64,000 nucleotides of DNA from Nitrospinaceae bacterium (lineage in GTDB: Bacteria; Nitrospinota; Nitrospinia; Nitrospinales; VA-1): assembly GCA_029261455.1 (NCBI GenBank), contig JAJDBH010000210.1:136-64135 (forward strand), read 5' to 3'. This document shows, one piece after another, positions 29,783 to 46,175 of the stretch. The position numbers and the translations under genes were made by a program. Numbering within the stretch: position 1 is the first letter of the stretch; every line of letters begins with the position of its first letter. The notes under the pieces are model-generated. The model had not been told where the DNA came from. It saw nothing but the letters and a program-made list of their open reading frames with translations, and did not search any database.

Positions 29783-30838
29783 GTGAATACCCGTTCCAAA
29801 ATCCTTCAGGACGTTCAGAACTATTACGGAAAAATACTTAAAACAAAAAATGACCTTCAGACCAGTGCCTGTTGCGCGGCAGATACCATGCCTGCGTACC
29901 TACGCCCTTATTTAAAAAATATACATGAGGAAGTCCAATCAAGATTTTATGGTTGCGCTTCCACGTTCCCCACAAGCCTTTATGGAAAAACCGTGGTAGA
30001 CCTTGGTTGCGGCTCCGGACGCGATTGCTACCTGCTAGCTCAGGTGGTAGGCCCTGATGGCATGGTCATCGGCATTGACATGACTGATGAACAATTGGCA
30101 GTTGCAAAAAAACATATCGATTTTCATACGAAAAATTTCAACCTGGAAAAACCTAACGTTGACTTTCGCAAAGGCTGGATAGAAGACCTTACTTCGGCAA
30201 ACCTGGAAGACAATTCTGTAGATGTGATTATCTCCAATTGCGTGATCAACTTGTCTCCCGACAAGGAAAGTGTATTTCGTGAAATTTTTCGAGTTCTCAA
30301 ACCGGGTGGGGAGTTATATCTCTCAGACGTTTTTACCGGACGACGGGTGCCGGAGCCACTGACTACCGACCCAATTCTACTTGGCGAATGCCTCGGCGGT
30401 GCCCTTTATATAGAAGACTTCAGACGCATGATGAGAAACGTAGGGGCTCTCGATTACCGGGCTGTTTCCAAAAACCCGCTCACTCTCAACAACGAAGACA
30501 TCCAGCGCAAGGCCGGCATGATCGATTTTTATTCCATGACCGTGCGTAGCTTCAAATGCGATTTCGAAGACATTTGTGAAAACTTTGGTCATGTTGCCTA
30601 CTACAAAGGTAGCATTCCTGAATTCCCACACGGGTTCACTCTTGATGACCATCATTATTTTCAGACCGGAACTCCAGTACCCGTTTGCGGCAACACCAGT
30701 AAGATGTTGAGCGAAACCCGATTCGGCGAGCACTTCAATATCCTCGGAGATTTCTCAACCCACTACGGCCCCTTTGACTGCAGCACTCCTCAAGCTCAAG
30801 AAGGTATCTCCGCAAGTAGCGATGGAGCCTGTTGCTAA
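29783..30838 (+). CDS. arsM: Arsenite S-adenosylmethyltransferase (ArsM/AS3MT-like)
   Basis: SACC, FYGC, DLGCGSGRD, SNCVINLSPDK, GECLGGA, terminal CC. Confidence 0.85.
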   Translation: MNTRSKILQDVQNYYGKILKTKNDLQTSACCAADTMPAYLRPYLKNIHEEVQSRFYGCASTFPTSLYGKTVVDLGCGSGRDCYLLAQVVGPDGMVIGIDMTDEQLAVAKKHIDFHTKNFNLEKPNVDFRKGWIEDLTSANLEDNSVDVIISNCVINLSPDKESVFREIFRVLKPGGELYLSDVFTGRRVPEPLTTDPILLGECLGGALYIEDFRRMMRNVGALDYRAVSKNPLTLNNEDIQRKAGMIDFYSMTVRSFKCDFEDICENFGHVAYYKGSIPEFPHGFTLDDHHYFQTGTPVPVCGNTSKMLSETRFGEHFNILGDFSTHYGPFDCSTPQAQEGISASSDGACC

Positions 30839-31283: not shown

Positions 31284-32549
31284 TCAGGCATCCAGGGTTA
31301 GGTCATCTTTAGGGATGCTAATGCACGCAAGACAGGAACCTGCTTCGGGCTCCGACCCGGGTTCTCCCACTAACTCCACCGCACCATTCTTGATAGCAGT
31401 GAGACAGGTTCCACAATTGCCGGCACGGCAACCTGAATCAATGGGGATCTGGTTCGCTTCCGCGAAATCCAGCAATGATGCCGCTTTTGAATCCCACACC
31501 AAAGTTTTTCCTGACTTCTGAAACTGGATATTAATTTTAGCAACGCTTTCCTTGCTTGTTTCGACCTTGCAACCTTTAACTGTAGCTGGACCAAAAGCCT
31601 CAAAATGAATATTTTTTTTGGGAACTCCCCAGCCGTTTAAATCTTTTCTCAAATCTTTAACCATTGGAGGCGGAGCACAAATATAAAAATCAAAGTTATT
31701 TGACGGAAGAATTGCCTTTAAATTTTCTACAGTAACCCGACCCTGAACTTGATAATCATCGTTCAACACATCGGTTTCTGCTGGCGAACTATAAAATACA
31801 TTCAAGCTAACGTTTTCATTCTCCCTAGCCACCATTTCCAGGTGCTCCTTCATAATATGCTCTGCCCTGTTTCTCACACCCAAGAAAAACCAGACCTCTC
31901 TCTGGGAACCCATTTCAGTGATGGCATTGAGCATGCTGAGAACAGGGGTGATTCCCACCCCTCCCGCTAAAAATACTACCGGAGTTTGTTTCATCATACT
32001 CAGGCTAAAATGTCCACTGGGAGCTTTAACATCGACTATGTCATTCTCGTTCAGAGAATCATGAAAATAGTTGGAAATTAATCCAGGAGGAGCAGTAAGG
32101 TTGTCTCTTGGAGCCAGGACTCTTTTGATAGATACTCGATAGCGATCCGGATGGTAAGGGCTGTCGGATAGAGAATAGCAACGAATAACCGGCTGAGGCT
32201 GATCGGGTAAATGAACCTGAAAAGTCAGAAACTGTCCCGGTAAAAATCCGGGCAGCTCCTTACCATCATGTGGAGCGAGATAAAAGGAAGTAATATCGTC
32301 CGTTTCTTTGACTTTAGAGATCACCTGAAACTTTCTAAAACCGTTCCAAGACAGTTTCAACTGCTTTGTTTCGATTTCACGCCGATCCATTATGCTTTTG
32401 ATCTTCGCCTTTAACAGCTCTGCTTCCAAATCAGCACTGTTCTGGCTAATCGCAAGAATCCGCGAGTTATTAGCCAAAAGCACTAACACATAGGCTACCA
32501 ATCCTAATAAAAAAACCAGCGCAACAAAACTGAATATTATATTTAGCAC
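31284..32549 (-). CDS. Membrane-anchored FAD/NAD(P)-binding oxidoreductase with C-terminal [2Fe-2S] ferredoxin (FNR/PaaE/Hcr-like)
   Basis: N-terminal TM; RCYSL, GGVGITP, HFEAFG, CRAGNCGTC...C. Confidence 0.9.
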   Translation of the reverse strand: MLNIIFSFVALVFLLGLVAYVLVLLANNSRILAISQNSADLEAELLKAKIKSIMDRREIETKQLKLSWNGFRKFQVISKVKETDDITSFYLAPHDGKELPGFLPGQFLTFQVHLPDQPQPVIRCYSLSDSPYHPDRYRVSIKRVLAPRDNLTAPPGLISNYFHDSLNENDIVDVKAPSGHFSLSMMKQTPVVFLAGGVGITPVLSMLNAITEMGSQREVWFFLGVRNRAEHIMKEHLEMVARENENVSLNVFYSSPAETDVLNDDYQVQGRVTVENLKAILPSNNFDFYICAPPPMVKDLRKDLNGWGVPKKNIHFEAFGPATVKGCKVETSKESVAKINIQFQKSGKTLVWDSKAASLLDFAEANQIPIDSGCRAGNCGTCLTAIKNGAVELVGEPGSEPEAGSCLACISIPKDDLTLDA

Positions 32550-32588
32550 AATCTCTCCTTAAAGATGAAGCATGCCGCCATTGATACT

Positions 32589-34481
32589 CTACGGTGTTGT
32601 TAAAACTGGCTCTGTCTTCACGACAAGCATATCTTTTTTAAAGCTTGGTTTGAAATGATACAAATGGCATTTCTGGCATTCAAGGTCAATTTGCAACTTC
32701 GAATGACACTGCATACAAGTCTTCTTACTGATGAACTCAAAGTTACTGACCCAATTAACGGAGTCGTATTGCTTAAAAGACGCCATATAGTCCACTTCCT
32801 TATTAAGGATATGACAATTCGAGCATGCGCCTTTGGTTCCTAATATTTCTATATGATTTTCATGCTTATAGCGCACATAAGGGCTGTCATTTTTATTTTC
32901 ATAATTCCATGCCACCGCTAAATGGGAACCAACCTTTGAATTTTTAACCTCCGATACCGCATGGCATTTGATGCATCCACCCACGCCATCCTTAACAGAA
33001 AGAATCTGATCACGCATAGCAATCGCTCTTGCTGCCTTGTCTTCCTCTTTCTGATTTAAAGACACAGCCAAGGCAAACTCTAACCAGCTTTTAACCACGG
33101 GGTCAGCATGCCCTGAAGGTTTGTAGCGGATTTCCAGCATGTCGGTATACCAACCTCCAAACCTCGCCTCTGCGGGAGACTCATACTCCAGATTCAGCCC
33201 CCATGAGCAAGCCGCACGTTTGAGCACTTCAGGGTTCAAACCCATCAACAGGTTTTCAGACATTGGGGTTTCCGTTTGACTATCAATCAACTCCGCGAAG
33301 GGAGTGCTACTTTCTTCAGCCATAGCAAGAACCAGATCCTGCATAGGTTGGTCATAAATTTCCGGGTCATCTTCAGGAATATTTAAAAGAAAGGCACTCA
33401 CTAAAGCCGGTTGTTCGGTAGAAACACTGAGAAATTCTTCCTCCTCTTTTACATTACCCTCTGGAAAATTACATGCCTGCACCAAAGAGTCGTGGTCAAT
33501 CCGGTTTTGTATCAACTCCGGAAGCCTAAGGAGTATGAGATCTTTTTTCTTGATCTGCGAATCATGACAAGCAGCACAAACTGTCTCATAACTACTCGGA
33601 CGTACCTCCCTGTCCTCTAGCGTTATCATGTGGCAGCCTATGCATGACTCTGGAGCTTTGTCAGAAACCTTGGGATTCTCAAAATGCTTTTTCAAGTGAG
33701 AGCTATGATCAAACTTGATCGAGTTGCGGTTGAAATAGGGGTATTTTTTAGAAAACTCAGGATGCCCGTGCTCTAAGCTCGTGAACTTACTCTTATGGCA
33801 TGAATTGCACTGTTCTGGGAACAATGCTCTAACATTCATGCTTGGTCCATTATGCTCGCGATGGCACATGACACATTGCGTATCACCAACTTTTCTTTCT
33901 GGAGACATATTGGCGTTATGTGCCTTAAAACTCGGGCCACCAAAACTATGGCAATTCACACACCGGGATGAAAGATCAGAATCGCTGAATACTGCATTAA
34001 TCCATTCTACAGGACCTTTGCCATGAGCTGCATGACAAGTGGAACAACCTTCTTTTTCGGTAAATTTGGCATGGGATTTGGACAAGGGTCCAGGATCAGA
34101 AATACTGATCATACCTCCAACCTTAGGATCCAGCACCAGAGAGGAACCTATCAAGGCTAAAACAATACTAACAGCTAGCAGTGCCAATCTTCCACGGATG
34201 ATCCGCAAGGTACTTCGAGGGGCACATGGCGACCTTTGGATTGAGCATTCTCCACCTGAACCAGGACCGTCTTCACACGGACCACCGAATCTTTTCTCCC
34301 TCCTGCATTCCCATCGATCATTTTTTAGAAACGGGGTGCATTCCTGAGTTCCACCGCAGGTTCCATCCACCTCCGGACCATGATTACAGGGTGTTTGCCA
34401 TAAAGATGCTCTCCCACAACGATAGGGTAGTTTAGGCCTTTCATAATAACTCTGATCGTGACCAAACTTATTGTCTTCCAT
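32589..34481 (-). CDS. Membrane-anchored decaheme cytochrome c with Cys-rich N-terminal domain
   Basis: 10 CxxCH motifs after a single TM helix; 8 non-heme Cys before the TM. Confidence 0.9.
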   Translation of the reverse strand: MEDNKFGHDQSYYERPKLPYRCGRASLWQTPCNHGPEVDGTCGGTQECTPFLKNDRWECRREKRFGGPCEDGPGSGGECSIQRSPCAPRSTLRIIRGRLALLAVSIVLALIGSSLVLDPKVGGMISISDPGPLSKSHAKFTEKEGCSTCHAAHGKGPVEWINAVFSDSDLSSRCVNCHSFGGPSFKAHNANMSPERKVGDTQCVMCHREHNGPSMNVRALFPEQCNSCHKSKFTSLEHGHPEFSKKYPYFNRNSIKFDHSSHLKKHFENPKVSDKAPESCIGCHMITLEDREVRPSSYETVCAACHDSQIKKKDLILLRLPELIQNRIDHDSLVQACNFPEGNVKEEEEFLSVSTEQPALVSAFLLNIPEDDPEIYDQPMQDLVLAMAEESSTPFAELIDSQTETPMSENLLMGLNPEVLKRAACSWGLNLEYESPAEARFGGWYTDMLEIRYKPSGHADPVVKSWLEFALAVSLNQKEEDKAARAIAMRDQILSVKDGVGGCIKCHAVSEVKNSKVGSHLAVAWNYENKNDSPYVRYKHENHIEILGTKGACSNCHILNKEVDYMASFKQYDSVNWVSNFEFISKKTCMQCHSKLQIDLECQKCHLYHFKPSFKKDMLVVKTEPVLTTP

Positions 34482-35311
34482 TATACGAAGTACACCATAA
34501 CAAGGGTTAAATGCCAGATCACCATTGCCATTACCGCACCTGCCAAGGGAATGTGGACCAGAAGCCAGGTTTTAAGTAATGTTTGAAGTGCATAATGAAA
34601 GTCAATCTTCCTCTTTTTTTCTGCTAGCGCATAAACCTTGTCCAAATATTCACGTTCCTTTTCATTTAAGAAACGTTCTAATATCATGCATTGCTGGTGC
34701 ACCCAATGCTGAGGTAGGTGGCTACCAAATATATTATTTATGAAAAACCTTGGCCGTTGAAAATATTGCCCCAAGGTTTCCAGATAATGTTCGGCCAGCG
34801 TACTACTACCGGTTTCTTCGGTACACTTCAGAATAAGAGACTCTACTTCCTCTCTTATTTCAGCAAGCTCTCTTGGAATGCGTTCATAAATGACTTCCAC
34901 ACCGCTTCGGGTTAGCTGACGGGGATAAACTTTTTCAATAAAGAGTCCCACTATTCCTGAAATAGAGGTGATATAAAATAGAACCGTCATCACCTGCCCA
35001 TAAAATCCTTTCGACCATATGCCTCCGATGTGTAGCCAAAACAAGAACAGAGCCAGAAACCCGCAAACCACGTGAAGTAGAAACCATCTAGATGAAGAAG
35101 CAAGAGGCAAAAATGGCAATCGCTTACGTGCACTAAAAAGAGAAAGAAAAATCAGTATCCCAAATAATACCCAGCCATTGGCAAAAGCTGAAATACCGAG
35201 GGCGCTATCAATCTGATAGGTCCACATCCATGTCACTAGAAATAAAAGAGTCGCCAAAACCACGTAGACCCAATTTCGGACTAGACTAAAACCCTGTTGA
35301 ATTTTCATCAA
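34481..35311 (-). CDS. Integral membrane protein, putative di-heme cytochrome b (ferric-reductase-like)
   Basis: Multiple TM helices; two H-x13-H pairs (LHVVCG...WLH and VHIPL...WH). Confidence 0.7.
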   Translation of the reverse strand: MMKIQQGFSLVRNWVYVVLATLLFLVTWMWTYQIDSALGISAFANGWVLFGILIFLSLFSARKRLPFLPLASSSRWFLLHVVCGFLALFLFWLHIGGIWSKGFYGQVMTVLFYITSISGIVGLFIEKVYPRQLTRSGVEVIYERIPRELAEIREEVESLILKCTEETGSSTLAEHYLETLGQYFQRPRFFINNIFGSHLPQHWVHQQCMILERFLNEKEREYLDKVYALAEKKRKIDFHYALQTLLKTWLLVHIPLAGAVMAMVIWHLTLVMVYFV

Positions 35312-37007
35312 TATCTATCTTTCTAAAGTCTACTCGGCTCATGGCATCATGCGGGCAGGCAAAAACACAGGCTGGCCCACTAATCTGGTCGGCACACAGG
35401 TCACACTTCGTCGCCTTAAGTATGGGTTTCTGATTCTGAGGGTCTGTAATTAATTGCCCTTCATGATCGTTGATCGACACCATCCTGATATTGGAATAGG
35501 GGCAGGAGTTCGCACAAGTTTCGCAACCAATACAAGTATCATCATTAATAATGACCATACCTCCAGACATGGACCGATGAATCGCACCAGTAGGACAACC
35601 GATCATACAAACAGGATCAGCACAATGCATGCAGGCATTGGCCACCATCCAGTTCCCAAAAGTCTTGCCATGCCTGACAAATCTGGGATTGCCATCATGC
35701 GTTGCGGAGCAAGCCTGAACACAGTCATCACACCGCACACATCGATCAAGATTAATCAGCATCGCCTGAGTTCCATTTATAAAACGTTCTTCAACCGCCC
35801 ACTCCATTAAAGCTCCATCGGTCAAGGTACGATCGATATAATCCTGCAACCGCCTTGACTCAAAGGAAGACTGCGAAGTCGCCTGTCTAAACCCTTCTCT
35901 ACCAGATGACCAGTAAGTGAATAGGTGTTTCTCTACAATTTTACTAGGTACCCGGAGCATTTCTGCGTACCCAATAGCTGTGATGGTCACTCTCATACCA
36001 ACATTAGGTTCTCCCTGCCATACTTGGAACAGTTCGTCCGCTCCGTAAAAATCCCCTGTACCCAAATAGGTTAGAGTCTGCTGGCCATTTCCCCGGTCTA
36101 CAGAAACCCGAGCAAACCCAGCCCGAACCAATAATATTCCATCTGAATAATCGCCCTGATTGGCAATAATCGGTTCATCCTTGATGCCATGGGTTTTATC
36201 ATGACTTTGAAGCTTGTTATAGGTTAGATGCCAATCAAATTTTCCGTAGGTTTCAAAGAGGGTGGCATCTGCCACCTCCTGAAGATCTTTATCATCTAAG
36301 TGAGAAAAAATGGAAGTCGCCCTTAGGTGGGCGTTGAGGGCGTTGGTACGATAACGCTGATCAATGAGGCGGCGCCATCCTTGATCATATTTCCTGAACT
36401 CACGGAGTCCCTGCCAGCGTATCTCCAAAAGCTCTGTATCGGATTCTGCAAAAATAGTGGATGTTCTAGGGGTCCGCCCCAAGGCGGCAAGTTCTCCAAA
36501 TAACGCTCCTTTTCCCAGAGAAGCGGTTTTATTCTTATCTAAAACAGCAGGAACATCTTGGAGAAAAACATGTGATGACCCCAAATCCTCCGCATCTCGA
36601 ACCATAGCATGCAGACCATAGCGTTTTACATCACGGGTTTCCGGAATTTTACTCCGGGTCCAAAGCTGTTTGAGGGCTTGCCAAAAGGTTTTTTTTTGAA
36701 TGGTTCGTCGACCTAGCATTTCACCAGGAAGGCCAGGGAACAACACGACTTTTAGTGAACCGTCCAGAACCAGGAATGCAGAATTGCCATAGTCTCCCTC
36801 GCGGATGACAATGTCTCCCGCTGAGTACTTTACAATCCGCGCATCATTTTTAAGAATTCCTCTGAGAGAGCAATGAGGGGGAAATTTGCTCTCTTCTATC
36901 GCTGCAATCTCTGGAGTGGTCAACAGCCGGTCCACATCCAATTCGGTCATAAGCAGACCGAATGGTTGGTCCCACCTCTGCGGACGCACTTGAGTCGTTA
37001 TAGCCAC
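35286..37007 (-). CDS. Tandem cyclic-nucleotide-binding domains fused to a DmsB/NrfC-like 4x[4Fe-4S] domain
   Basis: IREGDYG...FGELAALGRTPRTSTI; second CNB fold; CVRCDDCVQAC, CMHCADPVCMIGC, CIGCETCANSC, CDLC...CVFAC. Confidence 0.9.
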   Translation of the reverse strand: MAITTQVRPQRWDQPFGLLMTELDVDRLLTTPEIAAIEESKFPPHCSLRGILKNDARIVKYSAGDIVIREGDYGNSAFLVLDGSLKVVLFPGLPGEMLGRRTIQKKTFWQALKQLWTRSKIPETRDVKRYGLHAMVRDAEDLGSSHVFLQDVPAVLDKNKTASLGKGALFGELAALGRTPRTSTIFAESDTELLEIRWQGLREFRKYDQGWRRLIDQRYRTNALNAHLRATSIFSHLDDKDLQEVADATLFETYGKFDWHLTYNKLQSHDKTHGIKDEPIIANQGDYSDGILLVRAGFARVSVDRGNGQQTLTYLGTGDFYGADELFQVWQGEPNVGMRVTITAIGYAEMLRVPSKIVEKHLFTYWSSGREGFRQATSQSSFESRRLQDYIDRTLTDGALMEWAVEERFINGTQAMLINLDRCVRCDDCVQACSATHDGNPRFVRHGKTFGNWMVANACMHCADPVCMIGCPTGAIHRSMSGGMVIINDDTCIGCETCANSCPYSNIRMVSINDHEGQLITDPQNQKPILKATKCDLCADQISGPACVFACPHDAMSRVDFRKIDIDENSTGF

Positions 37008-37127
37008 CCACCACCTCCAAAACGCACAACATGAAGAGGCAAACCTGTCATCTAACTCTGGAGTTGTGACTCTTAATATACTATTAACGATTCAGGGAAA
37101 CCAAAACCCAGGCTATAAACTTCCTCC

Positions 37128-38105
37128 CTATTTATAATCCGCTTTAGCTGGGAGCTTACTTCCAACAACCCCGGTCAAATCTTTTCCCGCTACAGATTTA
37201 ATAAAGATTAAAGCATTTTCTCTTGAAGGTGCGGCTAATAATCCCGCCGCTTCAGAAATTCCACTAAGCGCGGACTTGGCAATCTCAACTCGTTTGTTTT
37301 GCGCTTCCTTATATTTAGCCTCACCAGATTTAGAAATGGCTTCAGTGGCAGAAACCAGCGCCGCCGCTTGACCAATCACATAAAGACTAGCCAACTCCGT
37401 AGGAGTCATTTCAGCATTGGTCTTGATATCGGGTGGATAATGCCTGTGACGCACTGAACCTTGAGAGTATTTAACCAGTTCGAAGTTGGGGTTAATCGGA
37501 TGTCCGGCTCCCAACATTTTAGCCAAGTCATCGGCTTTAAGGTTGGGGTGAGCCAGACCATGGCAAGTCATGCAGTTTTCAGCAACCTCATACTGCATGG
37601 ATGGCCATATCAAACCCGCCGCCTTGGAATCAGCAACCCGTTTGATTTTATGATCCGCCGCTTCCTGATCTCGCTTAACATCCTTCCCACCATAATTATC
37701 ATGAAGCGCCAACCAATCAGAAGACGCACCATGGCAACTTTCACAAGAGGTTCCAGACTTTGCAGCCGACTTGGAACCGGCATCTTTCTTCACAAGCGTG
37801 TAATGGCACAGATAACAGGTTTCATTCCTTTTCATCCGTTTCTGTCCCCCAACAGCACTCAATATTTTCTTGGGAGAGGGTTTACTATCATCTTTAGGCT
37901 CTCGGTGAACAGTCCTAAAAGACGTGTAATGCTTGGTTTTCTCCCAAATCTTGGTCTCTTCTTCATGACATTCCTCACAGAGCTTGGCACCTTTGAAAAA
38001 AGGTTGGGCCATTGATGTAACAGGAAAAACCAGCCATGCTAACGCCAAAACCAACGCCATCAGAGAAAAAGGTTTAAATATGAAATATGTATCATCACGC
38101 TTCAT
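37128..38105 (-). CDS. Periplasmic tetraheme cytochrome c (c554-like)
   Basis: Signal peptide; CEECH, CYLCH, CESCH, CMTCH; start MKRDD behind GAGGG. Confidence 0.88.
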   Translation of the reverse strand: MKRDDTYFIFKPFSLMALVLALAWLVFPVTSMAQPFFKGAKLCEECHEEETKIWEKTKHYTSFRTVHREPKDDSKPSPKKILSAVGGQKRMKRNETCYLCHYTLVKKDAGSKSAAKSGTSCESCHGASSDWLALHDNYGGKDVKRDQEAADHKIKRVADSKAAGLIWPSMQYEVAENCMTCHGLAHPNLKADDLAKMLGAGHPINPNFELVKYSQGSVRHRHYPPDIKTNAEMTPTELASLYVIGQAAALVSATEAISKSGEAKYKEAQNKRVEIAKSALSGISEAAGLLAAPSRENALIFIKSVAGKDLTGVVGSKLPAKADYK

Positions 38106-38185
38106 AACACCCTCACTTTTTAAAGGGAGCGGTAACACAACCCAGCAAATATTGCAGGGCCGGAAAAACCCGATCCACTCTCAAA

Positions 38186-39613
38186 TTAAAATTGATAGAG
38201 AATTTCTGTTCGCAAACCAAAACCGTCACTACGCTTTTCCTGGACAGTATAATGGGTGTCTACTTGGAGCTGGATTCTTTGGGCCAGTCTTTGACGGAAT
38301 TCAAAACCAACCGCTATGTCATCAAATCTTTCACCACTGGTATCTTTTCTACCGGCCAATTCAAACGTAAGACTTGTTCTATGGTGATTCCAAAATGCTT
38401 GGTATCCCGTGGCAAACCCGGCCACATCATCCGCAAAACTATTCAACTCAGACCCAAAATTACCGAGACTGGGAGAGGCAAATAAGATACCTAAAGCCCC
38501 CAAAGGCCCACCAACTATCGCCTCACGACCCACTTGAGTGAAATTTCCAGCCGCAACAAAGGCATTAAAATATACGATGTCATCAGATTTTTCGGGTGTA
38601 AAGGAAGTTTCGGCAGAGAAAAGGGTTCCAGTACCAGCCTTTGCGTTATCTTCTCCATCCGCAACCGAGCTATTAATTCTGAAAGCCGTACTGTAAACCC
38701 CGATTCTTTGAATTGTTGAAAACCCTACATGAAAACTATCACCAGCAGAGTCCTCGTCAGTAACATACACCAAGTCCAGATTCCAAGAGAGATCCTGCAT
38801 ATCTGCAGAATTAAACAACCCAAACATATTCGCAGTATCATCCCGCCCCGCATTGCTTCTTCCCACCTCGTTCCAACCCCACACGAAGGAAGATCTCAAG
38901 CTCGGTATACCTGGAAGATGAATATTATTGCGAGTAATCCCAATGGCATCTATTTCATCATTGAGCATGATGCCCTCTTGGAACTGCAATAATTGCCTTC
39001 CCACAGAAAACCCAAAGTCCAGTGGCTTTGTTCCGGCAGGGTCCAGCTTGGGAAACAGACTTCCCAAGTCACCCTCAAAAAACATGGTCCGGATATCCAT
39101 ATTAAATTCGGACTGACCAGAACCCCGATTATCGTTAAACGATACTCGTGAAAATTGGGTGGGCAAATTTCTATCTAGAGGTCGAGCTCCAATAATAAAC
39201 TTTTCAGTACCTGTTAACTGCACATTAGCGTAAAGATCCAGGCGATTTGCCCATTCAGAAGCAGTACTGTTCGAGCCCGCATTTTCAAACATTTGCAAAC
39301 TCGAACGCATGGTTCCAAAAACCCACAACTGCGGTTGCCAGACTGCTCCCCATGGGGTCTCAAACCCCTCATAAAGATCTCCTACTCCAAGAAAAAGGTC
39401 TCCACCCTCATAAATCAGCGGAGGGCGCGTACCGGTGTCAGAAGGAGGACGCAACTGGATATGCTCCTCAGAAAAGGAGCTCGCCTCTGAGGTGTCTCCC
39501 AATGGAAACCAATCTGCGTAAGCCGGAATAGAAAAGCATAAGACCATACCTGTGAATATAAGCCCGAATAGAACTCTATGAGTTCGGCCTAAAACTGCGC
39601 CATACATTCTCAC
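38186..39613 (-). CDS. Putative outer-membrane beta-barrel (porin-like)
   Basis: Signal peptide ending AYA, amphipathic beta pattern, C-terminal ILYQF BAM signal. Confidence 0.75.
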   Translation of the reverse strand: MRMYGAVLGRTHRVLFGLIFTGMVLCFSIPAYADWFPLGDTSEASSFSEEHIQLRPPSDTGTRPPLIYEGGDLFLGVGDLYEGFETPWGAVWQPQLWVFGTMRSSLQMFENAGSNSTASEWANRLDLYANVQLTGTEKFIIGARPLDRNLPTQFSRVSFNDNRGSGQSEFNMDIRTMFFEGDLGSLFPKLDPAGTKPLDFGFSVGRQLLQFQEGIMLNDEIDAIGITRNNIHLPGIPSLRSSFVWGWNEVGRSNAGRDDTANMFGLFNSADMQDLSWNLDLVYVTDEDSAGDSFHVGFSTIQRIGVYSTAFRINSSVADGEDNAKAGTGTLFSAETSFTPEKSDDIVYFNAFVAAGNFTQVGREAIVGGPLGALGILFASPSLGNFGSELNSFADDVAGFATGYQAFWNHHRTSLTFELAGRKDTSGERFDDIAVGFEFRQRLAQRIQLQVDTHYTVQEKRSDGFGLRTEILYQF

Positions 39614-39655
39614 TCTCTCTTAGCCTCCAAGTATCGCAGAAAGGTTAGTCCTGAA

Positions 39656-41608
39656 TTAATTGTTAGCTTTAAAACTAACTTCTTTTTCCCACAGAATTTC
39701 ATAACCTGCGGCAACGCCGTCAACGACCTCACGGGCACTCATGGCATAGTCAAATCCCCGCCCCTGAATAGCTCCCACTAAATTAGCTGGAGCCATACCC
39801 GCTTTCAATTCGATTTTAGCCTTGTAAGGACCTTTGCCAGTCAGCGCATCGTCATCAACCCGATATTTAGCCCAACGATAACCGGATGGTTCGATACCTC
39901 TTCGATGATTTCGCTCTGTACCTGGCTCACCCGATAACACCAATGACTGGACTGAAGGTCGCACAAAAGGAATTGTTATCAATGGATAAGGGATGGGGAT
40001 GATTCTCTCCCGCTCTCCGCCACGCAGGTTTGAGACTACAAACCGTGATCGCAAGTCAAACAACTGCCCATCCAAAGGAAGCTCCCCATTATGAACAAAT
40101 GTGGATTCTCGATCGCGCACATCCCCATTCGGGTCCAGATCGCCTGATTCGAGAACCACCTTTCCGTCACGGTCTGTCACAGTAACATGGAGCCAGACAA
40201 GGCGCTCTCCTGTAAACCCAGTCGGAACATTATGGCCATCCGTTAGATTACTAACCTTAACCTTAAAGTGTATGCCTTCCTCATTACTCTGCTCGGTAAC
40301 AACTTCTCCCAGATGATAGCCATTTCGCAATACTTCCAGACGTAATTTCCGGGCATATGCCAAATGTTCAAACTGTTTGTTTAAAATCTCACGGGCATCG
40401 TAGCGGTCATCGACTGAGTCCCAACGAACAGGGAACTTCATATCCTCGGTGACCTTGTCTTCAAACTCATCGGTACCCCAGCCGGCTTTATGATCAAACT
40501 CAAGCCACTCTCTCATACTAGCCATTTCCTGAGCCTCCGCGTTATGCGGAAAAATCCCGGGATGAATGACTGAATAGTCCGGCCCCGCAAAAAAGTGACT
40601 GGTGACCTTTCGGTCTTTAGTTGGTTTCCCTCCTACCATGGCAGCAGGTCCAACATCATACCCTGAAGCCACACCCTGCTCTTTACCCATATGACAATCC
40701 TGACAAGTGGTTCCCCTAGCCGCAGCCGGAGAAGTGCGGTACTCGCTAAATGCCTCCTCAAGGCGGAAACCATTAAACAAGGTTACATCGTGGCAAGTTC
40801 CACAAAATACAGGTTGGGAGATGGAAGCAAATTTCTTAACTTCTCTATGAATTTTCCTTCCAGGCTTTCCTTCTTCGGTCACAACGCGGTATTCATCTGT
40901 ATTATCCAGAACACGTGCCATCTCTTCATTACCCATTGGCCCATATACCGGCTCGAGCAAGCCCCCTTGCTCTAAAGCTAATCTCCCACTCCTTTTATTG
41001 TAGTCCTTGTTCAAACGATGACAGACCACACAGGTTATGCCTTCACGGGATGTAGGGTGTCGGTCCAAGTTTGACATAAAAGGAGACTCACCAAGGTTGG
41101 CACCAATGGGGCTGTGGCATCTCAGGCAGAAATCCCCATTCGATCCACTGGACAACTCATTGATCTCACTGCTGAGAGAAAGATAAACCGGGCTCAACTG
41201 TGCATAAGAATGCGACGAAACCGACCACTCTCGATAATGTTTGGGATGACAGGTGCCACAGGTCGCGGCCGAAGGAAATTTACTTTCTGCAAACAGTGCT
41301 TCATGGTCTGCTGCCGCTTGTAGCGCGACATCTTTTCCAGAATTATCTTCACCCGAACCGGTCTTTTTTCCCACAGAATTAGTGGAAGATTCAGAGCCCT
41401 CTTGTGCCACCGCGCTCGCCTTCTTATCCGACATTGCAGAAGCTTTTTCGGAAGAAGCATTATTAGTGGAGCCAGGTACATTCTGGATGCAGGAATAAAG
41501 AAAGAAAAGAGCAAAACCTATTATTGCTAATGACAGAAAAGAGAAACAGTTATTTTTAGAATAAGATTTTAAAGGCAACACATCGGTAGGCTTAGTAAAA
41601 ATTCTCAT
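39656..41608 (-). CDS. Pentaheme cytochrome c, probable lipoprotein
   Basis: LYSC lipobox plus low-complexity linker; CGTCH, CLRCH, CVVCH, CGTCH, CQDCH; GHNVPTG. Confidence 0.88.
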   Translation of the reverse strand: MRIFTKPTDVLPLKSYSKNNCFSFLSLAIIGFALFFLYSCIQNVPGSTNNASSEKASAMSDKKASAVAQEGSESSTNSVGKKTGSGEDNSGKDVALQAAADHEALFAESKFPSAATCGTCHPKHYREWSVSSHSYAQLSPVYLSLSSEINELSSGSNGDFCLRCHSPIGANLGESPFMSNLDRHPTSREGITCVVCHRLNKDYNKRSGRLALEQGGLLEPVYGPMGNEEMARVLDNTDEYRVVTEEGKPGRKIHREVKKFASISQPVFCGTCHDVTLFNGFRLEEAFSEYRTSPAAARGTTCQDCHMGKEQGVASGYDVGPAAMVGGKPTKDRKVTSHFFAGPDYSVIHPGIFPHNAEAQEMASMREWLEFDHKAGWGTDEFEDKVTEDMKFPVRWDSVDDRYDAREILNKQFEHLAYARKLRLEVLRNGYHLGEVVTEQSNEEGIHFKVKVSNLTDGHNVPTGFTGERLVWLHVTVTDRDGKVVLESGDLDPNGDVRDRESTFVHNGELPLDGQLFDLRSRFVVSNLRGGERERIIPIPYPLITIPFVRPSVQSLVLSGEPGTERNHRRGIEPSGYRWAKYRVDDDALTGKGPYKAKIELKAGMAPANLVGAIQGRGFDYAMSAREVVDGVAAGYEILWEKEVSFKANN

Positions 41609-41836
41609 GTCTCACCCTGCAAAATATCAAATTGTAGTTTTCAAAAGAGAGCAAAACCCTGTCACAACTAAAACACAGGCACTCCCCGCTAAAAACGAGT
41701 CACTTTCCGCAACATACTAACTCGAATAAAGTCAGGGTCAAGTAGAAATTTCCGGCTAGGGCCAGGAGAACCTGCTAATCATCCGCAGTTCTATACATTC
41801 GGCACTTGAAGCCTCACAAACTCAAACTTTTGACAT

Positions 41837-42682
41837 TCATAGTCTACGAACAAAGGAATGATGCACTATTAGAGTTAATAAATATTGCACGGCCATAACC
41901 CAGGCAAAGGGGATCAGGCTGGATGAAAGAATTCCAAGAATAGCGAACAGGGCAAGCAGGAAAAGCGGAAGGTCTAGCCCATTCCACCGCCAAAGCAGTA
42001 GAAGAATTTTTATTTTCTCGTAGCAGGCTTTTCGTTGTTCCAAGGTCAAGTCCGCTTGCATATCTTGATCGTCTGATTTCGCCTGCCGCAAAAAACTCCA
42101 TTCACCGCGAAAAAATAATTGTTGCGCCTGCATATAATAAAAATAAAGCACCAGCACCCATGACTTTTTAGCCTTATTTTTTTGGCGGGTACTTTCAATC
42201 TCCCTTTCCATGCCATCAAAGCCTTGCAATATCAAGGTCGCCAGACTTTGCTTACAATAGTCATAAGAGATGGCTCTCAATATAATCAGTCCTGCAATAA
42301 TTTTCAGGACTGGTTCATATTCCGGAAAACCTTTAATGAGCCCTATCACCACCGCAAGGTAGGCAAAGTAGCCAGCGATACCATCAATCAGCCTACCCCA
42401 TTCGCTTGCCATGGCCTTAGCCCGAGCCAGTTGCCCGTCTACACAATCCAGCACCAAAGTCATTTCCAGCAAAATCCCCCCCAAGACCAGGGATACCGGA
42501 CTGGCAAAACTGAACGCATAACCGGAAGCAAAACCTACCAGGACGGAAAAATAGGTCACTTGATTGGGAGTCACCGGAGTGTTCTTTAAAAAACCTACAA
42601 TCTTTTTCGCAATCGGGTCCTGAATATAACGATTGACTGGCTCCACCAAGTCTCCGAAGGCGTGTCCCGATGTCTCACTCAT
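41837..42682 (-). CDS. CDP-alcohol phosphatidyltransferase family protein
   Basis: TPNQVT; DCVDGQLAR-x8-GRLID motif. Confidence 0.88.
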   Translation of the reverse strand: MSETSGHAFGDLVEPVNRYIQDPIAKKIVGFLKNTPVTPNQVTYFSVLVGFASGYAFSFASPVSLVLGGILLEMTLVLDCVDGQLARAKAMASEWGRLIDGIAGYFAYLAVVIGLIKGFPEYEPVLKIIAGLIILRAISYDYCKQSLATLILQGFDGMEREIESTRQKNKAKKSWVLVLYFYYMQAQQLFFRGEWSFLRQAKSDDQDMQADLTLEQRKACYEKIKILLLLWRWNGLDLPLFLLALFAILGILSSSLIPFAWVMAVQYLLTLIVHHSFVRRL

Positions 42683-42685
42683 GGC

Positions 42686-43693
42686 CTACATCCATTTTTC
42701 TTTTTGATACCATTTGATCGTCTCATCCAACCCTCTACTCAGCTCATATTTAGGTTCGAAGTCGAACGTCTTAAAAAAATTTTCCGGTGAAGCTGACCAG
42801 GAGCTCTGACGTATATCAATCATCCTTTGCCGATCAAACAACGCGGGTTTGGAGTTGAAGCTAGACCACGCCTCAAAAAACAAAGCAACAGGAACAAGCA
42901 CCACTTCAGGAACTCTCAAAGTCTTCACATGAACATTCAAAATACGCGCGCACTCTTTCGCAATCTGCTCCCAAACATAAACACGGCCATCAGTAACAAA
43001 ATAACTGTGTCCCTTCTGCTTAGATGGATCGGAAGCAGTGAGCATAGCATCGACTAGGTCAGAAACATAAATCAACGAAAGTTCTTTACCTGCCCTTCCA
43101 ATTTGCAACCCCCAACCTTTCTGAATCAATTTAATGAAAGTAAAAAAGTTTTCTTCTCGAGGACCATACACCACGGGAGGACGAATAACAGTAAGAGGGA
43201 GCGACTGCGAATACTGAATTGCAATTTCTTCTCCCGCAAGTTTTGACTGCCCGTAAAAAGTCACAGGTTTGCAAGGTGTGATTTCATCAACAAGGCTACC
43301 CTGAGAACTGGGACCAGTTGCCGCCAGGCTACTCAGATGGACGATGCCCTTAATCCGGCTCCCACGTTTTTGGCATTGCTCATAGAGATTTGAGCAGGCA
43401 GTCGCATTGACCTGAAAATAACCGGAACGGGATTTCGCCTTAGTCAATCCTGCGCAATGGAAAACATAATCTAACTCCTCCAAAGCAGGGACTATGAAGT
43501 CTGGTTGCGCTAAATCCACTCGGTGAAGGTGCACCTTAGAAGCATCCAGCCATTTGAGATCAGAGGATTCTCTCACCAGTCCATGAACCGTGCAACCAGA
43601 GGCCAAAAGCTGACCTACCAGATGACTGCCGATAAAACCATTCGCGCCGGTGACCAACGCCGTAGCACCTTTAAGGTGTGATGATGCGTTCAT
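42686..43693 (-). CDS. Extended SDR (NAD-dependent epimerase/dehydratase), candidate 3-oxo-ceramide/3-ketosphinganine reductase
   Basis: TGANGFIG, YGQSK, RPPVVYGP; position in operon with spt. Confidence 0.8.
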   Translation of the reverse strand: MNASSHLKGATALVTGANGFIGSHLVGQLLASGCTVHGLVRESSDLKWLDASKVHLHRVDLAQPDFIVPALEELDYVFHCAGLTKAKSRSGYFQVNATACSNLYEQCQKRGSRIKGIVHLSSLAATGPSSQGSLVDEITPCKPVTFYGQSKLAGEEIAIQYSQSLPLTVIRPPVVYGPREENFFTFIKLIQKGWGLQIGRAGKELSLIYVSDLVDAMLTASDPSKQKGHSYFVTDGRVYVWEQIAKECARILNVHVKTLRVPEVVLVPVALFFEAWSSFNSKPALFDRQRMIDIRQSSWSASPENFFKTFDFEPKYELSRGLDETIKWYQKEKWM

Positions 43694-44792
43694 AGATGCG
43701 ATGTCTTTTATAAATAGTTCCCCCTATCCGGCTCATCGGATCGGTAATGCTTTTATTATCTTCCAACAACCAGGACATCTCGCACCATTTTATCTTTTTA
43801 TCCAGAAACAATCTGTAGGTTTCATAATAAAACCAGGCATCAATACCGAGCTTGCGATATTTCTTTTTCACCCCAAGAATAGGAACTCGGTAAGCATTAA
43901 TTTTACTTTTCTTCCATAAAAATCGTGCCCAACCGAAGGGGAACAGGCTGCCATTTAGCTCTATAAGTATCTGGTTGATATCGGGAAAGGCCATGGAAAA
44001 ACCTGCGGGTTCACCTTTAACTTCGGCAATCATACAAAATTCAGGTTGAATAATGGGCTTCACTTCTCGAATAGAAAATTCAAATTCTTTTCGTTTCATA
44101 GGCACGAACCCCCAATTCAGACTCCAAGCAGAATTATAAACATCCCAAAGAATCGAAATTTCTTGATCAAACCGGCTCAGATTCAGAGGCCTTATATTAA
44201 AATGATTCCTTCGCTTTAGCTTTACTGCGGCCTGCTCCAGGTAATCTGGAATCTTTATCAAGTCAAGGCGGAAAGCTACAAGGTCTTTAGCCTTTTGCAG
44301 GCCCCATTCTTCAAAATGTTTTACATAATATTCAGGGTTATAAGGGATGCCCAGCATAGTGGGGGAGTCAAACCCTTCTACCAACAGACCACATTCATGA
44401 TTGGTCGACAAATTCATCGGTCCTATCAGACGAGCATACCCTTTTTCCTGACACCATTGATAAGCCTTGTCCAACAAAAAGCGGAAGAGGTTTGGGTCAT
44501 CCATCGCCTCAAGCATGCCAAACATTCCAGCAAGTTCCGAATGAACTTCCTGATAGCCCTGATCATGAATCAGAGCAATTCTACCCACTGGTGATCGATC
44601 ACTATCAAGCGCCAAAAAAAGATCGACTTCAGCATGTTCGAAAAAAGGATTGATGTCAGGATTCAGGAACTTTTTACGTTCCTGTATAAGGGGAGGAACC
44701 CAGCATGGCTGGTCTTTATAAACTTTCCAGGGTAGACGAATGAATCGTTCCAGATCCTGTTTGGTTTCAACCTTTACTAGTTCAAAACCCAT
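43671..44792 (-). CDS. GNAT-fold N-acyltransferase, bacterial ceramide synthase (CerS/YghO-like)
   Basis: FIRLPW..Y...WVPPL, NPFFEH, GPMNLSTNHECGLLVEGF, YNPEYY, NWGFVP, EMSWLLEDN. Confidence 0.8.
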   Translation of the reverse strand: MGFELVKVETKQDLERFIRLPWKVYKDQPCWVPPLIQERKKFLNPDINPFFEHAEVDLFLALDSDRSPVGRIALIHDQGYQEVHSELAGMFGMLEAMDDPNLFRFLLDKAYQWCQEKGYARLIGPMNLSTNHECGLLVEGFDSPTMLGIPYNPEYYVKHFEEWGLQKAKDLVAFRLDLIKIPDYLEQAAVKLKRRNHFNIRPLNLSRFDQEISILWDVYNSAWSLNWGFVPMKRKEFEFSIREVKPIIQPEFCMIAEVKGEPAGFSMAFPDINQILIELNGSLFPFGWARFLWKKSKINAYRVPILGVKKKYRKLGIDAWFYYETYRLFLDKKIKWCEMSWLLEDNKSITDPMSRIGGTIYKRHRIYERIITP

Positions 44793-44794
44793 TT

Positions 44795-46126
44795 TTACTT
44801 AGGAATAACACCTAACTTTGTCCCAAGCTTCTTGAAAGAACCAAGTACTTTATCAAGATCTTTCTGGTCATGGGCAGAGGTATAGCTGGTTCTAATCATA
44901 GCGTTAAGAGGTGGCACAACGGGTGATACTGCGACTCCTGCAAAAACCCCATCATCAAAAAGGAGTCGGTTCAAATAAAGAGTGAGAGCTTCTTCTCCTA
45001 TTTTTATGGGCACAATAGGAATAGAATTATTATTAACCTGAAAGCCCATATCAAAAAACCCTCTTTTTATATAAGCTGTATTTTCCTGCAACTTATCGAT
45101 ACGCTCTGGCTCATTAATCATGATATCCAGACCCGCAATGACCCCGGCAACAGACGCAGGAGGCAGAGCTGCGGTAAAGATAAATGCCGAAGCTTTATGA
45201 CGAATAAACTCGGTTATCTTGGACTTGGCAGAAATAAACCCACCGATAGACCCCAAGCTTTTGGAAAACGTTCCCATATAAATATCTATTTCGTCTTCCA
45301 AGTTGTAGTAGCTGGCAACGCCCTTGCCATTTTCACCCATGACACCCAGGCCATGAGCCTCATCAACCATGACGTTGGCACCATAATCTTTCGCAAGTTT
45401 CACAATAGCGGGAAGATTGGCAATATCGCCGCTCATACTGAATATACTGTCAGTAATAATTATTTTTCCTTCAACATCTGAATATTTTTTCAAATAATAT
45501 TCAAGATGATCCATATCATTATGCTGATAGCGGACAGTCTTTCCAGGTGCAACCCCACACCCCTCGTAGATACTGGCATGGTTTTCCCGGTCCGAAAAAG
45601 CCACATCCTTTCTACCCAATAGACAGGCGATGGTTCCCTGATTTGCCTGAAACCCCGTGGACATGACAATGGTATCTTCCCGGTTCAAAAAAGAAGAAAT
45701 TTCCCTTTCCAAGGTCTTATGCAGATCGAAGGTGCCATTGAGAAAACGGCTACCGGTACAACCAATGCCGAATTTTTCCAATGCATCTCTAGCCGCTGCG
45801 ACCACACGAGGTTCTTGTGCCAGTCCGAGATAATTATTGGTGGAAACAGAAATAGCTGGCTTCCCGTCAATGACAACATGGCACCCATCAATCTCCTCAA
45901 TCGCTCTGAAATACGGGTAAATCCCCAGTTCCTTGGCTTGTTCTGGCGCAAAATAGCCGAAGCATTTTGCCAGAATCCCTTTGTCTTTACTGTTGGGGGG
46001 GCGCAGGTGGGAATTTTCAAAATCAAACTTCTTTTTCAACAAAGAAGTGATTTTACTCTTCTTTAAATGAGAAGGTTCTCCGTCATTACTTTCAAGTTCA
46101 CTGAGCAGGGTAAAAGGTTTTGTCAT
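44795..46126 (-). CDS. spt: Serine palmitoyltransferase-like PLP alpha-oxoamine synthase
   Basis: YPYFR, NNYLGL, GSRFLNGT, TGFQAN, NHASI, DEAH, GTFSKS; adjacent to a CerS-like gene. Confidence 0.8.
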   Translation of the reverse strand: MTKPFTLLSELESNDGEPSHLKKSKITSLLKKKFDFENSHLRPPNSKDKGILAKCFGYFAPEQAKELGIYPYFRAIEEIDGCHVVIDGKPAISVSTNNYLGLAQEPRVVAAARDALEKFGIGCTGSRFLNGTFDLHKTLEREISSFLNREDTIVMSTGFQANQGTIACLLGRKDVAFSDRENHASIYEGCGVAPGKTVRYQHNDMDHLEYYLKKYSDVEGKIIITDSIFSMSGDIANLPAIVKLAKDYGANVMVDEAHGLGVMGENGKGVASYYNLEDEIDIYMGTFSKSLGSIGGFISAKSKITEFIRHKASAFIFTAALPPASVAGVIAGLDIMINEPERIDKLQENTAYIKRGFFDMGFQVNNNSIPIVPIKIGEEALTLYLNRLLFDDGVFAGVAVSPVVPPLNAMIRTSYTSAHDQKDLDKVLGSFKKLGTKLGVIPK

Positions 46127-46175
46127 AAGTTTCTCATCAGAAATTTATAAGAGTTTAAAACCATAATTTATAGTT

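Follow-up and report, generated by a model that had tools for sequence, protein, structure and literature searches.

A complete ptd/PCC4 gene cluster in a Nitrospinaceae genome: a possible NAD(P)H-fed electron line to a periplasmic pentaheme protein under a small outer-membrane barrel

The window analyzed here is a stretch of 64,000 nucleotides from a Nitrospinaceae bacterium (GenBank assembly GCA_029261455.1, contig JAJDBH010000210.1, positions 136 to 64,135), and it carries a seven-gene electron-transfer cluster, named ptd or PCC4 in earlier work. Its likely task is to pass electrons from cytoplasmic NAD(P)H over the inner membrane to a protein with five hemes; this protein is probably an enzyme and is predicted to dock beneath a small outer-membrane pore without wiring electrons through it. 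The seven open reading frames (ORFs) all lie on the minus strand at 31284-41608 and are tightly spaced, with intergenic gaps of 42, 47, 120, -26, -1 and 39 nt along the direction of transcription. A previous interpretation made from the letters alone (the sequence-only reading) had described seven co-oriented genes with short gaps or overlaps and 19 CxxCH motifs; its coordinates agree with ours, as do the gaps and the motif counts (5 in PtdA, 4 in PtdD and 10 in PtdG). In the ptd naming, the gene order is A-B-D-E-F-G-C:

39656..41608, minus strand: PtdA, a pentaheme cytochrome c with a C-terminal immunoglobulin-like (Ig-like) domain, of the c552/ExtKL/MccSep (PHC) family, with a lipobox Cys40; the likely catalytic subunit (5 CxxCH, profile matches)
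38186..39613, minus strand: PtdB, a predicted 18-strand outer-membrane barrel of OprD/Occ/AlgE-like fold with a conserved N-terminal extension (AlphaFold2 model, mean predicted local distance difference test, pLDDT, 76)
37128..38138, minus strand: PtdD, an exported tetraheme c554-like cytochrome (4 CxxCH, signal-like N-terminus; PF13435, E 5e-13)
35286..37007, minus strand: PtdE, two cyclic-nucleotide-monophosphate (cNMP) domains and a DmsB/NrfC-like ferredoxin with 16 Cys, probably holding four [4Fe-4S] clusters (Pfam, NCBIfam, motifs)
34481..35311, minus strand: PtdF, the PCC4 inner-membrane protein, a putative diheme b, ferric-reductase-like protein with five transmembrane (TM) segments (W76-x3-H80-x13-H94, S118-G-x-x-G, W249-x3-H253-x13-H267)
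32589..34481, minus strand: PtdG, a membrane-anchored decaheme cytochrome c (10 CxxCH; hydrophobic helix 94-112)
34224..34418, minus strand: an unnamed, two-repeat 8-Cys domain with which PtdG begins, ahead of its membrane helix (conservation of the 8 Cys)
31284..32549, minus strand: PtdC, a membrane-anchored reductase for flavin adenine dinucleotide (FAD) and NAD(P) with a C-terminal [2Fe-2S] domain (Pfam FAD_binding_6, NAD_binding_1 and Fer2; hydrophobic helix 8-26)

Pfam and NCBIfam agree with the domains that the sequence-only reading had assigned to the cytochromes, the reductase and the cNMP/Fe-S protein; PtdB and PtdF match no family in either database. No molybdopterin family in these databases matched any of the seven proteins, as was said earlier of a set without a molybdoenzyme catalytic subunit. 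Each of the seven genes is single-copy in the 3.5-Mb assembly, and three of its 30 ORFs with at least two CxxCH motifs belong to the cluster.

It is nearly certain that these genes are a complete copy of a system that has been named twice already. Published work is cited here from the parts of each text available to us. Elbon, Stewart and Glass defined ptdABCDEFG, described its function as "completely unknown", gave marine alpha- and gammaproteobacteria, 'Nitrospirales' and Planctomycetes as hosts, and found ptdAB strongly transcribed in oxygen-deficient ocean water (bioRxiv 10.1101/2023.11.21.568154). He et al. (2017) described PCC4 as a porin with cytochromes of 4, 5 and 10 hemes and a 5-TM protein bearing SGXXG and two WX3HX13H motifs, first met in iron-oxidising Zetaproteobacteria and Hyphomicrobium and having no extracellular cytochrome; in its subgroup II a PF13247 gene lies upstream of the 5-TM gene (PMC5566968). 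The parts of subgroup II are all present here, namely the porin, the three cytochromes, the 5-TM protein with SGXXG on TM4 and WX3HX13H on TM3 and TM5, and a PF13247 gene directly upstream of the membrane-protein gene, which it overlaps by 26 nt; both also lack an extracellular cytochrome. The match is one of components and motifs. The seven parts of ptdABCDEFG are likewise all shared (a pentaheme protein that bears a beta-sandwich at its C-terminus and is like c552, a porin, an FAD/NAD(P) oxidoreductase, a tetraheme protein, a cNMP and 4Fe-4S protein, a ferric-reductase-like membrane protein and a decaheme protein), but the order A-B-C-D-E-F-G is not, ptdC being the last gene here. The statement of the sequence-only reading that the set matches no named complex is thus wrong, since it fits both definitions; neither paper characterised the system. 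Besides the two naming papers, we found one passing mention of it (PMC13264449) and no functional test in the literature searched, which largely excludes subscription journals. Nitrospinaceae multiheme clusters of unclear role are mentioned in a nitrifier metagenome paper (PMC11995701), and the present gene order with its Nitrospinaceae hosts may already be listed in a figure or the supplementary tables of Elbon et al.

The closest PtdB relatives (58-95% identity) come from 22 loci, 20 of which are assigned to Nitrospina, Nitrospinaceae, Nitrospinales or Nitrospinota. All seven genes occur in the same order at 12 of these loci (in one of them the DNA breaks off within ptdC, in another the barrel gene is frameshifted), and 6 others agree as far as the fetched DNA extends. 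At 2 loci unrelated genes follow the A-B-D end; one Hyphomicrobiaceae locus (L021) has all seven genes, at 25-63% identity to the present cluster, rearranged with A-B-C facing D-E-F-G; and one holds a weak fragment without context. These counts include kin, which are not independent, and some loci that were fetched twice by different tools. The A-B pair is divergent in L023, L031 and L032, and ptdA and ptdB stand side by side at every locus read that has both of them assembled. Because the order varies among relatives (L021; L023, L031, L032), the A-B-D-E-F-G-C order is apparently a lineage trait. Type I or type II ptd genes (the latter with a fusion described below) were found in 19 of 60 relatives, and A, B, E and F are together in 17 of the 19, both exceptions being contig ends; none were found in the other 41, including single-contig genomes of the same genus. 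Judged from gene content, the system is thus co-inherited but accessory. The earlier idea of a set with a component for every compartment is supported, and the set forms one conserved unit. That A-B-D can stand alone, as it seems to at two loci (L011 and L014), was rejected, as E and F lie elsewhere in those genomes; where the A-B-D block is detached, the genome was found to encode E and F at another place in 3 of 3 cases. Frameshifts, either assembly errors or decay, were seen in the barrel gene of the closest relative (L007:7385-8805) and in ptdG of L023 (6736-8657).

A total of 2,952 PtdA-like proteins were found among 7,997 candidates scored. In a profile search PtdA matched the Thermochromatium cytochrome c552 (PDB 5ze8, E 6e-14), and it hits the NCBIfam ExtKL model at E 7.9e-10, below the model cut-off. 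With this c552 and with the polysulfide reductase MccSep/ExtKL of Geobacter, PtdA shares the five hemes, the Ig-like domain and the motif spacing; these proteins are grouped as the PHC family in a paper on cable bacteria (PMC11976967). In MccSep four hemes are bis-His, heme 2 is bound by His and Cys239 and is catalytic together with Sec325, and heme 1 is the proposed entry (bioRxiv 10.1101/2025.11.18.688581). PtdA has four invariant His outside the motifs (133, 254, 338 and 459) for its five hemes in 102 sequences. The alignment places two PtdA features at the two catalytic positions of MccSep:

40757..40771, minus strand: G-F-R-L-E, PtdA residues 280-284, at the place of the MccSep heme-2 ligand Cys239
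40214-40216, minus strand: F465 of PtdA, at the place of MccSep Sec325

R282, L283, E284 and F465 are invariant in 102 of 102 rows, and FRLE with the Phe is kept in all 120 PtdA homologues listed. Where MccSep has Cys239 and Sec325, PtdA therefore has Leu/Glu and Phe, and it has no Cys outside the heme motifs after residue 40, so that no free Cys is left in the mature domain; MccSep chemistry is therefore excluded. By alignment, PtdA is not a MccSep but keeps a conserved pocket where MccSep has its active site. PtdA is also the most conserved subunit across phyla, with 63% identity to the Hyphomicrobiaceae copy vs 25-48% for the other six, and cytochromes of extracellular transfer are reported to be poorly conserved (PMC12977616). 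As in ptd, a porin gene, extI, lies in the MccSep gene cluster, and its loss lowers selenite and tellurite reduction (PMC5877670). An enzyme-like PtdA is suggested because it is the most conserved subunit, because it has four distal His for five hemes as MccSep does, and because the MccSep cluster also has a porin. The earlier description of PtdA as a pentaheme lipoprotein holds for this copy, with its five CxxCH motifs and lipobox Cys40, and less clearly for the family: Cys40 is missing in some orthologues (e.g. L009, L010 and L016), the strict lipobox pattern is found in 1 of 120 homologues, and some Cys at residues 11-60 in 60 of 120. Elsewhere in the host genome, a pentaheme ORF on another contig (C27) shows weak likeness to PtdA. 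The tetraheme PtdD keeps H70, H146, H213 and H231 in 26 of 26 close homologues.

The sequence-only reading had called 38186-39613 a beta-barrel ending in Phe, and PtdB is indeed modelled as an 18-strand barrel with a C-terminal Phe. Its fold matches Occ/OprD, AlgE, MOMP and chitoporin (VIA Z 24.9-26.6, root-mean-square deviation, rmsd, 2.9-4.1 over 315-335 residues), in agreement with Foldseek (E 6e-12); MtrB is not among the fold matches listed by either tool, and PtdB has no match to the MtrB family in Pfam or NCBIfam. The model thus resembles a small-solute channel. A complex of PtdA (residues 100-650) and PtdB (34-475) was modelled with custom alignments and three controls. Its score was 0.86 and that of the best control 0.00; this mark, roughly valid with custom alignments, is reached by 116 of 157 solved complexes and by 2 of 215 mismatched pairs, and a pass can stem from likeness to solved structures. 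The runs agree in at least 85% of contacts, with a partner pLDDT of at least 82. This prediction speaks for binding and docks PtdA on the periplasmic face of PtdB, with a heme-free segment in the lumen:

39875..40030, minus strand: PtdA residues 527-578, heme-free, with many barrel contacts in the complex model (predicted interface list)

The 138 barrel contacts, 39 of them in the N-terminal extension of PtdB, involve all 8 periplasmic turns and all 18 strands, mostly in their periplasmic halves, and only 2 of the 9 outer loops are touched, the third and the seventh, which in Occ channels fold inward. The other contacts of PtdA are at residues 608-629 and in stretches around the motifs of hemes 2, 4 and 5, and none is listed at the motifs of hemes 1 or 3. 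In the model, this pattern fits an enzyme with its active-site side to the pore and its entry heme to the periplasm.

These data bear on the alternative suggested by the sequence-only reading, He et al. and Elbon et al., that ptd is a true porin-cytochrome conduit, with PtdA lodged in PtdB and trading electrons with acceptors or donors outside the cell (Fe, Mn or others), like MtoAB, PioAB and Cyc2. As in MtrAB, MtoAB and PioAB, a barrel gene stands beside a multiheme gene and a tight complex with a large interface is predicted; PCC4 is found in iron oxidisers (PMC5566968), ptdAB are highly transcribed in oxygen-deficient water, and the PtdA family resembles an archaeal nanowire cytochrome in its heme arrangement (PMC11976967). 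However, the barrel of PtdB has 18 predicted strands, against 26 in MtrB (PMC9581022; 28 in an older prediction, PMC7096707) and 24-32 in MtoB/PioB (PMC5566968), and a ten-heme wire of the MtrAB type differs from the five-heme globular, enzyme-type fold of PtdA. In addition, an extracellular cytochrome is missing, the PtdA segment that contacts the lumen has no heme motif, 7 of the 9 outer loops have no contact in the model, and PtdA is unusually conserved. From sequence and model, the outer half looks more like an enzyme beneath a channel than like a wire of the MtrAB type, and we consider the conduit unlikely. The earlier claim of an outer-membrane conduit is weakened by the strand number, the missing extracellular cytochrome and the mostly untouched outer loops.

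On the cytoplasmic side, PtdC carries the N-terminal hydrophobic helix and the FAD, NAD and Fer2 domains foreseen for a TM-anchored FAD/NAD(P)-[2Fe-2S] reductase. In PtdE, where no signal peptide was seen, Fer4_11 (PF13247) is matched at E 6.8e-11 (42.7 bits vs a cut-off of 26.2). All 33 homologues from the loci (rows partly redundant) retain each of the sixteen Cys at residues 423-551, because of which PtdE probably binds four [4Fe-4S] clusters in the DmsB/NrfC pattern; Elbon et al. count two. In the first cNMP domain G171 and R181 are present in all 33 homologues, E172 is present in 32 of them, and the cassette G-E-x-A-L...P-R is complete in 22 of 23 type I rows. The second domain is degenerate in this cluster type. 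Of the two cyclic-nucleotide domains and four clusters proposed earlier, the 16 Cys and a canonical first cassette stand, and a canonical second one does not. On contigs C141, C167 and others, the host carries two class III cyclase genes and 28 matches to cNMP domains, several of the latter being small ORFs that stand alone in arrays. With the intact first cassette, these would be compatible with the cyclic-nucleotide sensing proposed earlier.

The strongest support for NAD(P)H entry, as far as gene structure goes, comes from natural fusions in relatives, which agree with the cytoplasmic NAD(P)H-linked entry proposed by the sequence-only reading. In type II clusters a Fer2-FAD-NAD reductase is fused to PtdE (L024-L027; Pfam on L025, the others by BLAST), and these loci have no separate ptdC. 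In type III an unrelated pyridine nucleotide-disulfide oxidoreductase is fused to PtdE (L029 and L035), and in L035 PtdF is part of the same chain. An 856-aa chain in L042 (5039-10079) joins two cNMP domains, BFD, FAD/NAD and a PtdF-like domain, and adjoins an 11-heme cytochrome. MsrQ is a characterised analogue of this flavin-reductase-to-membrane-heme logic (PMC12525009). As to the layout of these types, type II has the order A-B-D-G-[reductase-E]-F and 3 CxxCH in PtdD (L024:8308-19894, L025:8274-17844, L026, L027); L024 has two tandem ptdA-like genes, and its genome also carries a type I cluster. The type III module (L029, L030, L034, L035, L043) consists of a thioredoxin-reductase-like flavoprotein-PtdE fusion, PtdF and a decaheme protein with WD40 (and FHA). 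In L029, L034 and L043 the genes that follow encode a triheme protein, an HbpS-like protein, an unknown product of 600 aa and a large cytochrome, with no ptdAB matches.

PtdF has five hydrophobic segments and the two H-x13-H pairs described earlier (H80/H94 and H253/H267); its model shows five membrane helices and a helical insert (pLDDT 95). Among 76 sequences H80, H94 and H253 are invariant and H267 nearly so, and both W-x3-H-x13-H motifs occur in 75 of 76 rows. A Lys/Arg-rich loop lies between TM2 and TM3, which suggests an N-in topology. As in MsrQ with its cytosolic NADH oxidoreductase and in NOX and FRE, the two H-x13-H pairs lie on TM3 and TM5, the FAD/NAD(P) partner is cytoplasmic and the acceptor periplasmic; ptd differs by its c-type cytochromes and by an inserted ferredoxin that has four clusters and cNMP domains. 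PF01794 is hit in 2 of 76 members only (E at least 0.013, below the cut-off), and neither Foldseek (E <= 0.001) nor a PDB profile search gave a significant match. The ferric-reductase call is based on motifs, since the fold searches did not confirm it. By analogy, PtdF and the N-terminal helix of PtdC may form a split six-helix NOX, which fits the topology. PtdF-like genes also stand beside cytochromes with 27-33 CxxCH (L039:6471-10907, L040:6283-10391, L041:6420-10261), an arrangement that resembles PCC3 of He et al.

The TM-anchored decaheme of the earlier description, PtdG, has its membrane helix and 10 CxxCH, a number kept in 93 of 105 long homologues; the N-terminal 8-Cys domain had been missed. 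Each of the eight Cys is kept in 95-100% of 150 homologues. At E <= 0.001 the domain occurs in 494 representative proteins, most often as the N-terminal part of a decaheme protein, and it has no Pfam match and no usable Atlas match. It lies on the Arg-rich side of the membrane helix and is, by this placement and its Cys, probably cytoplasmic and metal-binding. It is absent from type II, and one type III decaheme has an FHA domain instead. A link between the domain and a separate PtdC was rejected, as L021, where PtdC is separate, lacks the domain. Neither the 8-Cys domain nor the fusions nor the MccSep link is mentioned in the passages of Elbon et al. available to us.

He et al. argued from the likeness of PtdF to cytochrome b that the chain is quinone-linked (PMC5566968): PtdF would be a quinone-reactive cytochrome b, the chain would feed or drain the quinone pool, and PtdC-PtdE would be a side branch, e.g. 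an NADH:quinone oxidoreductase, with no bypass of quinone. This is the opposite of the sequence-only reading, by which the set may bypass a classical quinol dehydrogenase. MsrQ does bind ubiquinone, but the same paper finds that ubiquinone is not the donor (PMC12525009). A four-cluster ferredoxin with a 5-TM diheme anchor presumably recalls NarH-NarI, which would favor this scheme. Against it, in the loci read a flavin reductase, either separate or fused, accompanies the PtdE-type proteins that stand beside PtdF, and PtdG has no NapC/NirT match in Pfam. The quinone-linked scheme is thus rather improbable. The model of He et al. has inward flow to the quinone pool in iron oxidisers, whereas here the host is a Nitrospinaceae and the evidence favors outward flow from NAD(P)H.

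We therefore favor the reading that ptd is an NAD(P)H-fed supply line to a periplasmic enzyme, PtdA, under a small channel, PtdB, and put its probability at about one half. In this scheme, electrons from NAD(P)H would pass via FAD and [2Fe-2S] of PtdC to the four [4Fe-4S] clusters of PtdE, and from there to the two b hemes of PtdF, a NOX/MsrQ-like transmembrane wire. PtdF would reduce the decaheme PtdG, and PtdD would shuttle electrons from PtdG to heme 1 of PtdA, from which they could move via hemes 3 and 4 to heme 2. Heme 2 would be an open or Glu-ligated active site facing the barrel mouth, and would reduce a small solute that enters via PtdB. Nitrogen oxides, oxyanions, sulfur species and soluble metal complexes are candidates, and the data single out none. 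The outward direction is suggested by redox potentials and the membrane potential (general knowledge). Outward flow from NAD(P)H would spend reducing power and membrane potential and conserve no energy, so that a cAMP/cGMP switch on PtdE would make sense, and the role would likely be detoxification or redox balancing under low oxygen and not main-line respiration. A bolder version is tentative and doubtful: a cyclic-nucleotide-gated, quinone-independent line to a new class of heme enzyme, a pentaheme of MccSep fold with a Glu/Phe site clamped under an 18-strand pore, that reduces N, S or metal species in low-oxygen seawater, the 8-Cys domain being a new metal-binding module.

Several points weigh against the supply-line reading. 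NAD(P)H is costly for an autotrophic nitrite oxidiser; nitrite oxidation by this host is assumed from its family, because no nitrite oxidoreductase beta gene (TIGR03478) was found in the 84.5% complete assembly. The occurrence of PCC4 in iron oxidisers suits inward electron uptake (PMC5566968), and the ubiquinone bound by MsrQ speaks for a quinone link (PMC12525009). The PtdA-MccSep match is weak (9wt8, E 0.01), the alignment can shift by one residue at the heme-2 ligand and so put either L283 or E284 there, and the c552 relative has no known catalytic function (bioRxiv 10.1101/2023.11.21.568154). MccSep is a tetramer, with which the one-to-one docking of PtdA and PtdB may conflict. For PtdF, the VIA-align match to STEAP4 (Z 7.7, rmsd 4.0 over 146 residues) ranks below unrelated helical bundles. 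In the complex model the PtdA contacts reach 0.6-0.8 up strands 3-7 and touch both in-folding loops, so that PtdA may fill the barrel like a plug and leave no channel open; sidedness was read from contact lists and the strand positions of a separate model, without coordinates, and the C-terminal Phe was taken as periplasmic. A last alternative, very unlikely in our view, is an electron sink or signalling-coupled redox valve in which the 19 c hemes store or vent surplus electrons and PtdB only anchors PtdA, with no specific substrate: the accessory distribution and the swapped regulatory domains (cNMP on PtdE; FHA replacing 8-Cys on a type III decaheme) would suit it, but the invariant PtdA residues at the MccSep active-site positions and the conserved charged residues of PtdB suggest a defined ligand.

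The cluster is widespread and, according to Elbon et al., highly transcribed in the oxygen-deficient ocean. Both naming papers class it with the porin-cytochrome conduits, so that finding it in a genome could wrongly be taken as a sign of extracellular electron transfer. The system already carries two published names, so the advance is modest; the present analysis yields named putative active-site residues of PtdA, a predicted PtdA-PtdB interface and single-chain cytoplasmic fusions that are easier to express.

A candidate promoter lies upstream of ptdA:

41714..41741, minus strand: sigma-70-like promoter candidate, TTGACC-16-TAGTAT (consensus scan)

The TTGAC element and its spacing recur in most of 12 aligned upstream regions. 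The consensus scan gave 17 sites overall vs 16.4 expected, and promoter and terminator counts in the window show no excess over shuffles. We rejected a link between ptd and its neighbors, the arsenite methyltransferase gene and the lipid genes, as the flanks differ in L009, L010, L013, L021, L023 and L032. The arsenite methyltransferase-like gene (29783-30838, plus strand) converges on ptdC and is kept in close relatives but not at distant ptd loci. The five-gene lipid cluster upstream (41837-47228, minus strand), which adjoins ptd in many close relatives only, encodes a CDP-alcohol phosphotransferase, an epimerase-like reductase, a 373-aa protein that no Pfam family matches, an aminotransferase of class I/II and a fatty-acid desaturase, and presumably recalls the bacterial ceramide synthesis genes (spt, cerS, cerR). 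A 512-aa pentapeptide-repeat protein with an acidic N-terminus is encoded at 25632-27170 on the plus strand. The other multiheme genes of the host include adjacent 10- and 11-heme ORFs (contig C186) and two 8-heme ORFs (contigs including C59 and C37).

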